A stretch of 64,000 bases of DNA from assembly GCF_045037415.1 (NCBI RefSeq), contig NZ_CP173438.1; one strand, 5' to 3'. Shown piece after piece: positions 35,801 through 38,800 of the stretch; positions within the stretch are counted from its first letter, which is position 1, and every line of letters starts with the position of its first letter. Position numbers: made by a program. The stretch is from Escherichia coli (lineage in GTDB: Bacteria; Pseudomonadota; Gammaproteobacteria; Enterobacterales; Enterobacteriaceae).

Positions 35801-38800
35801 TTACAGCCAGTTGCTGAAAGTGTACCGGGCGCTACTGACTGAAGGCGTTTCCCTGCGCGATATCGTCACCATCGCCACCGTGCTGGTCGCCAGTAGTGCG
35901 GTGACCAAAGATCATATTCTGCTGGCGGCAGATGTGCGCCTGGCGCTGCGGCGCAGCATTACCCATCCGTTCGTTCGCAAGCAGGAGCTGACGGTGTATA
36001 CGCTGAATAATGAGCTGGAAAATCTGCTGACCAACGTGGTGAATCAGGCGCAACAGGGCGGGAAAGTGATGCTTGATAGCGTGCCAGTGGACCCGAATAT
36101 GCTCAACCAGTTCCAGAGCACGATGCCTCAGGTGAAGGAGCAGATGAAAGCGGCGGGGAAAGATCCGGTGCTGCTGGTGCCGCCGCAACTGCGCCCCTTG
36201 CTGGCGCGCTACGCAAGGTTGTTTGCGCCGGGGCTGCATGTGCTGTCGTATAACGAAGTGCCGGATGAGCTGGAGTTGAAGATAATGGGGGCGTTGATGT
36301 AGGCATCCGGCATCGGTGCATATTGCCGGATGCGGCGTGAACGCCTTATCCGGCCTACGGGTGAGCACGGTTTTGTCGGCATGATAAGACGCGTAGCGGC
36401 GCATCTGGCACCGGTGCACAACTGCCGGATGCGGCGTGAACGCCTTATCCGGCCTACGGGTGAGCGCGGTTTTGTCGGCATGATAAGACGCATCTGCGTC
36501 GCATCAGGCATCGGCGCACAGCTATAAAATGATACGCTCCCCAGCACTAAAATCCGTTACGTCCTCCGCCCAATCGATGGGATATAACCCTCGCGCGACA
36601 TCGCGATGAAACGTTGAGAATGGCCAATCACTCACTTGCTTTACCCAACCATGTTTTACTGGATTTATATAAATATAATCAACATGATGGCGATAGTCTT
36701 GGGTATTGCGAATGGCATGCTCCCAAAAACGCGGTTGCCAGATATTTTTCAATCCACAAGCATGGGTAAATTGCTTTTTAATTTCCCGCCAGCGCGAGGA
36801 AAAATCATCATCGCCTTCAGGTAATGTCCATATGCAATGCATATGCTCCGGCAAAACTACCCAAGCGTTAATTTCAAAAGGTCTGTCTCGCTTAACGTTA
36901 ATAATAGCGTTACGGAGCGTCTGAAACTGGGTGGTCAAAAGTTGGTTTCGACGATTCTGTAAATTTACCGTGAAAAACCAGGTTCCCCCCTTGATGTAAT
37001 AACGACGATATTCAGACATAACGACTCCTTTTTCTCAACGGTAAGAAGAAAAGGAAAAGTCGGCAATGATGTTGTGTTAAATCGGGAAAGCGGCTCGCAA
37101 AAAATGCACAGATTTATAGGCATGATAAGACGCGTAGCGTCGCATCAGGCACCGGTACACAACCGCCGGATGCGGCGTGAACGCCTTATCCGGCCTACAA
37201 AATCGTCTCTTCCGTCAAAATCCGCCGCGCGCCCAAAAAATGATCCTGCCAGAAAGGTTCAGCTAACCGACTTACCCGAATGGTTTCCCCGGTGCGCGGT
37301 GACTCGATAAACTGACCGTCTCCAAGATATACGCCCATATGGTCGGCTATCTCACGGCTGTGGATATGGAAAAACAGCAAATCTCCCCGGCGCAGGTCGT
37401 TATTCGCCACAATCGTTGCCCGACGGTAGTGGTACATCTCATTGGCCGTGCGCGGGAGCTTAGCCTCAAGGATCTTGTTGTAGGCATAAAAAACCAACCC
37501 GCTACAGTCGAAACCTTTATCAGGCCGCGTGCCCCCCCAGACATAAGGCTTGCCAAGTTGCTGTTCCAGGCGGTGAATCGCCACTTCGGTGATGTTATGC
37601 AGGTGGTTGCTGCTGAGGAAATGATTGTTTTCCGCCAGCGCCTGCCAGCGTCTGTCGTTCGCCTTGAGCGGCGCAGGAAACCATTCTGGATGCTGTTTTA
37701 TCTGCTCCCGATTATGCTGGCGCAGCGCCCTTCTGCTTTTAGCATTGCCTTCCACAATATAGCTGGCCTGCTTTTTCAGATGGGTTTGGTACTGTTTTAA
37801 TAAACGCGCACGGTTTTGCATCCGCTGGCGGGCGGCGTAGCTAAAAGAGATATGTGATGTGGTGGCGCTGGCGAGTAAAGGGAGCAAAACGCATAACGAA
37901 AACACGCCTGGATGCAGAAATCTGCCGTGCAAGAACGAAGACATGAAGGACATAAACCAGCTGAATGAAGGTGAGAATTTTAAAAGACCGGAGGAGTAAA
38001 CGGGATTATTAATTGCTTATTTGCATATTACTATTGCGGTTTCATAATCTTAGGAAATAAGAAATAAATCTACAATCCATGCGCTTTTCGGACTCTTGAA
38101 AACTGCACCTGTGCTAAATTTGTAAACCCTGCGCCGACAGGCTTGCGTAAAACTCTTTTGGTGATAATGTGAGCCTTCCAAATCCAGACTATTCCGATTT
38201 GGGATTCATTTTGCCGTCCTGGCGTGTGTAACCGTTTTATCAAGGAATAAGCAGTATGCGTAAAATCGCATTAATTCTTGCGATGTTGTTGATCCCATGC
38301 GTTTCGTTTGCCGGTTTGCTGGGCAGCAGTAGCTCGACCACGCCAGTGAGCAAAGAGTATAAGCAGCAGTTGATGGGATCCCCTGTCTACATCCAGATCT
38401 TCAAGGAAGAACGTACGCTCGATCTCTACGTCAAAATGGGCGAGCAATATCAACTGCTCGACAGCTATAAAATCTGTAAATATTCCGGCGGCTTAGGGCC
38501 AAAACAGCGTCAGGGCGATTTCAAAAGCCCGGAAGGGTTTTATAGCGTCCAGCGTAATCAGTTAAAACCAGACAGCCGTTACTACAAAGCGATTAATATT
38601 GGATTCCCAAACGCCTATGACCGTGCGCATGGTTATGAAGGGAAATACCTGATGATTCACGGCGATTGTGTTTCCATCGGCTGCTACGCGATGACCAATC
38701 AGGGTATTGATGAGATCTTCCAGTTCGTTACTGGTGCGCTGGTGTTTGGTCAGCCGAGCGTGCAAGTGAGTATTTATCCGTTCCGCATGACCGACGCCAA

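Follow-up and report, generated by a model that had tools for sequence, protein, structure and literature searches.

Background

The closest described system to the locus considered here is the dinJ-yafQ pair of Escherichia coli K-12 (b0226-b0225), a type II toxin-antitoxin (TA) module. PMC5120126, citing Ramisetty & Santhosh 2016, describes the TA modules of K-12 as products of horizontal acquisition that have integrated between genes of the core genome, gives the spacing at this locus as yafL-209 bp-dinJ yafQ-155 bp-yafK and lists dpaA, the gene also called yafK, as "likely cotranscribed, no promoter". How unevenly TA modules are distributed over the phylogroups was treated by Fiedoruk et al. 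2015, as cited in PMC7167474. With regard to this module, every genome of the E/B1/A lineage has been reported to carry yafQ-dinJ, which in the F/G/B2 lineage is confined to phylogroup F (PMC6896753), and a review of AIEC genomes did not identify yafQ/dinJ in them (PMC11205521). Phylogroup-dependent presence and absence of dinJ-yafQ is already known, and the absence that we describe below is a correct but ordinary finding.

We analysed one stretch of 64 kb from E. coli (contig NZ_CP173438.1), referred to throughout as the window, at the position where K-12 carries dinJ-yafQ. In the literature accessible to us, in which Fiedoruk et al. 2015 and Ramisetty & Santhosh 2016 figured through citations only, we did not find the exact junctions of the two arrangements, the exchange of the yafL 5' end, the polarity given by outgroups or the 38%/62% split among 5,426 genomes that are reported here.

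Absence of dinJ-yafQ between yafL and yafK

The first-pass annotation of the window had placed dinJ-yafQ between yafK and yafL in K-12, and had proposed that the pair is missing here from a non-coding interval of ~300 bp. This K-12 order is correct, since NC_000913 has dpaA (yafK) at 245065-245805, yafQ at 245961-246239, dinJ at 246242-246502 and yafL at 246712-247461. In the window, which is in the opposite orientation to K-12, yafL and yafK are divergently transcribed across a gap of 302 bp (Table 1), with yafJ, gmhA/lpcA and fadE as further neighbours. The gap measures 311 bp if yafL is started at 37944 (249 aa), as RefSeq PGAP does in the near-identical strain SK1144, a start that alignment with other species favours over that of the longest ORF. 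The ORFs of at least 30 aa that touch the gap are all mechanical (37859-37999, plus strand, 46 aa; 38050-38181, minus strand, 43 aa; 38070-38243, minus strand, 57 aa) and none of these three gave a Pfam match above cut-off.

Table 1 Features of the yafL-yafK locus in window coordinates
Feature	Position	Strand	Basis or remark
rayT	36522-37019	-	beside yafL
yafL, secreted NlpC/P60 (C40) peptidase	37195-37953	-	longest ORF, 252 aa; Pfam NlpC/P60
yafL allele-specific 5' end, signal-peptide coding	37873-37953	-	K-12 and outgroup comparison
Segment specific to the TA-less allele, 243 bp	37873-38115	.	K-12 and outgroup comparison
yafL-yafK intergenic gap, 302 bp, 39% G+C, no gene, no Rfam family	37954-38255	.	
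AT-rich core block, near-invariant among Escherichia species	38002-38061	.	
Sigma-70-like match TTTGCA-17-CATAAT inside AT-rich core	38020-38048	+	
yafK-proximal 140 bp, common to both alleles	38116-38255	+	99.3% to K-12; conserved out to Citrobacter
yafK/dpaA, YkuD-fold peptidoglycan meso-DAP protein amidase	38256-38996	+	Pfam YkuD; DNA 98.1% identical to K-12

Between yafL and yafK there is no adjacent pair of small genes in which a RelB/DinJ-family antitoxin of ~86 aa is followed by a YafQ toxin of ~92 aa, and similarity to DinJ (PF04221) or YafQ (PF15738), whether intact or as a remnant, was not encountered in the window. Searching the whole 64 kb by tblastn with the K-12 DinJ and YafQ proteins returned chance matches only (best E 0.39 and 1.3, respectively), none of them at the locus. 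When the K-12 yafK-yafL interval was compared with the window by sensitive blastn the sole match was 38116-38255 (140 bp, 99.3%), and no remnant of the TA pair is detectable in the window. The K-12 module is preceded by a LexA box (CTGTATATTTATTCAG) that sits 17 bp upstream of dinJ, and no LexA box of the form CTG-N10-CAG is present in 37873-38255. With neither DinJ or YafQ similarity nor a LexA box in the gap, the proposed absence of the module is confirmed.

Two alleles related by segment replacement

The window and K-12 share the chromosomal site, the flanking genes yafL, yafK/dpaA, yafJ and rayT and the 140 bp upstream of yafK, whereas the window lacks dinJ, yafQ and the LexA-box promoter and differs from K-12 in having a yafL upstream region and signal-peptide codons like those of outgroups. 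Towards yafK, homology to K-12 stops at 38115/38116, which in K-12 corresponds to a point 15 bp away from the stop codon of yafQ; towards yafL it stops inside that gene itself at 37872/37873, in the codons of the ASA-TTSH signal-peptidase site. Between these junctions 243 bp in the window (37873-38115) are exchanged for 838 bp in K-12 (locus L001, 5947-6784), the latter comprising the TA genes yafQ and dinJ with their LexA-box promoter, as well as another version of the yafL 5' end and of the sequence upstream of it. The net difference of 595 bp accounts for the locus spans of 1,806 bp and ~2,400 bp seen in the population search. The exchange also takes in the first ~24-27 yafL codons, and the polymorphism is accordingly one of segment replacement, not a clean insertion or deletion.

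The YafL signal peptide of the window allele reads M(SFM)SSFLHGRFLHPGVFSLCVLLPLL (extended form M(SFM)SSFLHGRFLHPGVFSLCVLLPLLASA) and resembles the versions of E. albertii and other Escherichia outgroups, differing from that of the K-12 allele, which reads MSLPSIPSFVLSGLLLICLPFSSF (extended form MSLPSIPSFVLSGLLLICLPFSSFASA). To the eye the two E. coli signal peptides look unrelated, and the switch from one to the other falls at the predicted signal-peptidase site, between ASA and TT. Given that the alleles switch at the end of the yafL signal peptide, strains bearing the TA module differ in the leader and promoter region of yafL as well. A diverged copy of the AT-rich core is present in K-12 on the yafL side of dinJ (L001, 6593-6651).

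The mature part of yafL (37195-37872) and rayT are themselves diverged among strains, at 92-97% and 88-96% identity respectively against 98-99% for yafK. This mosaic divergence is unrelated to TA status and suggests either frequent recombination or relaxed constraint. A long recombination tract marked by the divergence of mature yafL was also considered; TA-positive and TA-negative strains were not separated by it and the argument was dropped.

Outgroups and the polarity of the polymorphism

The ancestral arrangement was addressed by an outgroup scan that took one genome per species having YafL and returned 25 loci. Adjacent yafJ-yafK-yafL without DinJ or YafQ was found in E. albertii, Escherichia sp. 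E1V33, SCPM-O-B-8794 (a separate species representative labelled E. coli), nine Citrobacter and Phytobacter massiliensis. The TA module was likewise absent from the yafL loci of Kluyvera, Phytobacter, Pseudocitrobacter and Atlantibacter. Among the outgroups scanned only Escherichia sp. MOD1-EC7003, the representative of a non-coli species, carries it. The 243-bp segment of the window is collinear with that of the three TA-less Escherichia outgroups, with 80-84% identity over ~230 bp (E 1e-55 to 1e-66). Compared with the yafK-yafL gap of E. albertii, other Escherichia and Citrobacter, the window has the same gene order, the same lack of a TA module, the AT-rich core and the yafK-proximal block, and it differs by ordinary divergence only, being 80-84% identical in Escherichia and partly alignable with Citrobacter.

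A deletion cannot regenerate 243 bp of orthologous sequence, and the window would therefore represent the ancestral, unoccupied site and the TA module the derived state. Judged by this orthology, the empty site is ancestral, and dinJ-yafQ would be a later gain in the K-12 lineage and not a loss in the strain from which the window comes. With the module present in MOD1-EC7003, the gain may be older than the separation of the species or have crossed between them, and an ancestral polymorphism is possible.

Frequencies of the two alleles in E. coli

The locus was matched in 5,424 of the 5,426 complete E. coli genomes that made up our population sample. The window-type 243-bp segment was present in 2,084 genomes (38%) and the K-12-type segment in 3,340 (62%). 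The presence/absence polymorphism at this site that had been suggested from the window alone is thus borne out by 2,084 genomes without the module and about 3,340 with it; both states are frequent in the species while the flanks are conserved. Within the window type, 1,128 genomes carry the segment at an identity of at least 99%, 823 carry a 232-bp subtype at ~92% and 132 fall at 80-90%. The class with at least 99% identity includes ST131 and O2:K1:H4 isolates, which we take to belong to phylogroup B2. By sensitive blastn, dinJ-yafQ coding DNA was detected in 3,342 genomes, and no more than three records fell in the band of 60-80% identity. Since 2,084 and 3,342 add up to 5,426 the two states are mutually exclusive, and genomes without the module at this site appear to hold no second copy elsewhere, a reading that comes from these counts and not from a per-genome intersection. 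For the genome of the window itself, of which 64 kb were covered, the same counts speak only indirectly for the lack of dinJ/yafQ at other sites.

The window matches SK1144 at 99.995% identity over 41 kb, from position 7994 on, and SK1144 is listed as phylogroup B2 (PMC12366417). In being of B2 type and without yafQ-dinJ, the window agrees with the published phylogroup-dependent distribution of type II TA modules.

Explanations for the empty site

We regard it as highly probable that the yafL-yafK site was never occupied in the ancestry of B2 E. coli, and that the TA-bearing block was gained in the branch containing K-12. On this account dinJ-yafQ, as a mobile type II module, would have entered the site in the branch that holds K-12, O157 and B1 strains, presumably in a single ancient gain. 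It would have arrived as the 838-bp block, replacing the 243 bp of ancestral sequence together with the yafL promoter region and signal-peptide codons, and lineages such as B2 would have retained the old arrangement. TA modules can decay or be lost, and an ancestor might have had dinJ-yafQ at the site and deleted it, leaving the gap of ~300 bp; the module in the non-coli MOD1-EC7003 makes an origin old enough for this conceivable. Such a deletion, however, cannot recreate 243 bp that are absent from K-12 and orthologous to E. albertii and two further Escherichia species, nor has it left a TA fragment, a LexA box or a K-12-type yafL 5' end, the YafL signal peptide being of the outgroup type. 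Secondary loss is largely refuted by the apparent orthology of the 243-bp segment, and we consider it very improbable. The TA allele might instead have been held for a time and the empty allele regained by homologous recombination with a TA-less strain, and the mosaic divergence of yafL and rayT, independent as it is of TA status, indicates that recombination in the region is frequent. This detour is nevertheless unnecessary for the data, as B2 is reported to be without the module and the class with at least 99% identity includes ST131 and O2:K1:H4, and even then the empty allele itself would still be the ancestral one; a regained allele seems to us unlikely, if less so than a deletion.

The least probable of the readings is that the gap hides a small gene, a different or degenerate TA module or a small RNA that functionally replaces dinJ-yafQ. 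The minus-strand mechanical ORFs (43-57 aa) and a very conserved block of 60 bp might point that way, but indels among close relatives fall inside both of these ORFs, which, as noted, are without a Pfam family. Rfam searched at E <= 1 gave only two chance-level matches, both outside the gap, and the yafK-proximal hairpin region was predicted to fold no better than shuffled controls (z -0.03). Promoter-like and terminator-like matches in the gap were near shuffle expectation, barring the sigma-70-like site in the AT-rich core. The same gap is found in the outgroups, where it has the look of an ordinary divergent-promoter region.

On the favoured account of a site that was never occupied, the gap most likely serves as an ordinary divergent promoter region for yafL and dpaA. 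The yafK-proximal 140 bp would then probably comprise the promoter and 5' UTR of yafK/dpaA. Because these 140 bp are conserved in both alleles and out to Citrobacter, a promoter of its own is probable for dpaA, in contrast to the annotation in PMC5120126, and the gene would probably have no need of read-through from the TA operon.

Origin of the TA-bearing block

No donor of the block was identified in our searches, the nearest YafQ relatives outside E. coli being 76-82% identical, in contexts unrelated to this locus, and scattered in Salmonella, Xenorhabdus, Klebsiella, Yersinia, Pectobacterium and others. In Salmonella one homologue was found in phage-like surroundings, with an antiterminator-Q gene on one side and lysis genes on the other, and dinJ-yafQ DNA of 68% identity occurs on plasmids of ~40 kb in Klebsiella, Citrobacter and Enterobacter. 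This patchy spread, with plasmid and phage contexts, is typical of a mobile module. High-identity matches to dinJ-yafQ in PLSDB included seven 100%-identical records of ~214-242 kb from laboratory K-12, presumably F-prime plasmids, and three smaller records of 47-112 kb at 97.0-97.5%. Further PLSDB matches of 1.2-4.8 Mb were rejected as true plasmids, as they are far too large and are probably chromosomal pieces.

The K-12 sequence from dinJ to about codon 24 of yafL could not be aligned with the window or with the Escherichia outgroups. A 59-bp stretch within it is 80% identical to the AT-rich core of Citrobacter amalonaticus (z = 14 against shuffles), and the K-12 YafL signal peptide is nearer to Citrobacter versions than to Escherichia ones. 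These resemblances suggest that a diverged enterobacterial donor may already have had the TA module at this site. Tentatively, and with more doubt than confidence, the 838-bp block might stem from an enterobacterium outside Escherichia and have entered by homologous recombination, an event that would also have exchanged the promoter region and the signal peptide of yafL. Were this the case, gain of the TA module would have rewired a core gene, the neighbouring cell-wall hydrolase yafL. As yafL is fast-evolving and mosaic whatever the TA status, the left junction is less clean evidence for a single import.

Consequences for work on dinJ-yafQ

The locus is a textbook chromosomal TA module of the accessory genome and the finding in itself matters little. 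Results obtained with dinJ-yafQ in K-12, among them SOS-linked regulation, biofilm tolerance and persistence, cannot be carried over to B2 strains such as the one studied here. A deletion of the TA module in K-12 is not equivalent to the natural TA-less allele, as the two natural alleles are distinct in the 5' end of yafL and the sequence upstream of it as well.

Other observations around the locus

The yafL neighbourhood is framed in the window by further differences from K-12. A complete Flag-2 (lateral flagella) cluster occupies 1-36302, running from lafA via flg, fli and flhB to a full-length FlhA/LfhA of 697 aa, where K-12 retains only the pseudogene remnants lfhA and lafU. The window holds one copy of the IS3-family element IS1397 (539-2011) and SK1144 has two at other positions within the Flag-2 cluster, which makes the window strain a close relative of SK1144 but not identical to it. 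In E. coli GCA_015356555.1 (L035, 3001-3330) an intact Flag-2 flhA and dinJ-yafQ occur together, so that the Flag-2 and TA polymorphisms are not strictly linked; YafQ in this genome is a 109-aa variant ~90% identical to that of K-12. The TA-less E. coli PEC1013 (L029, 413-766) carries a HicB-family antitoxin annotation at the rayT position beside yafL, together with a truncated flhA, and the yafL neighbourhood therefore varies on the rayT side too. On the other side of the locus a second presence/absence difference is seen at 44642-44948, where tRNA-Asp (aspV) lies ~100 bp from yafV, the corresponding aspV-yafV distance in K-12 being ~2.4 kb and including yafT, ykfM and the pseudogenes yafU and yafF. 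Palindromic repeats of the REP type (e.g. GCCGGATGCGGCGTGAACGCCTTATCCGGCCTAC) flank rayT on both sides (36330-36527 and 37074-37190), as expected for a REP-associated tyrosine transposase locus.
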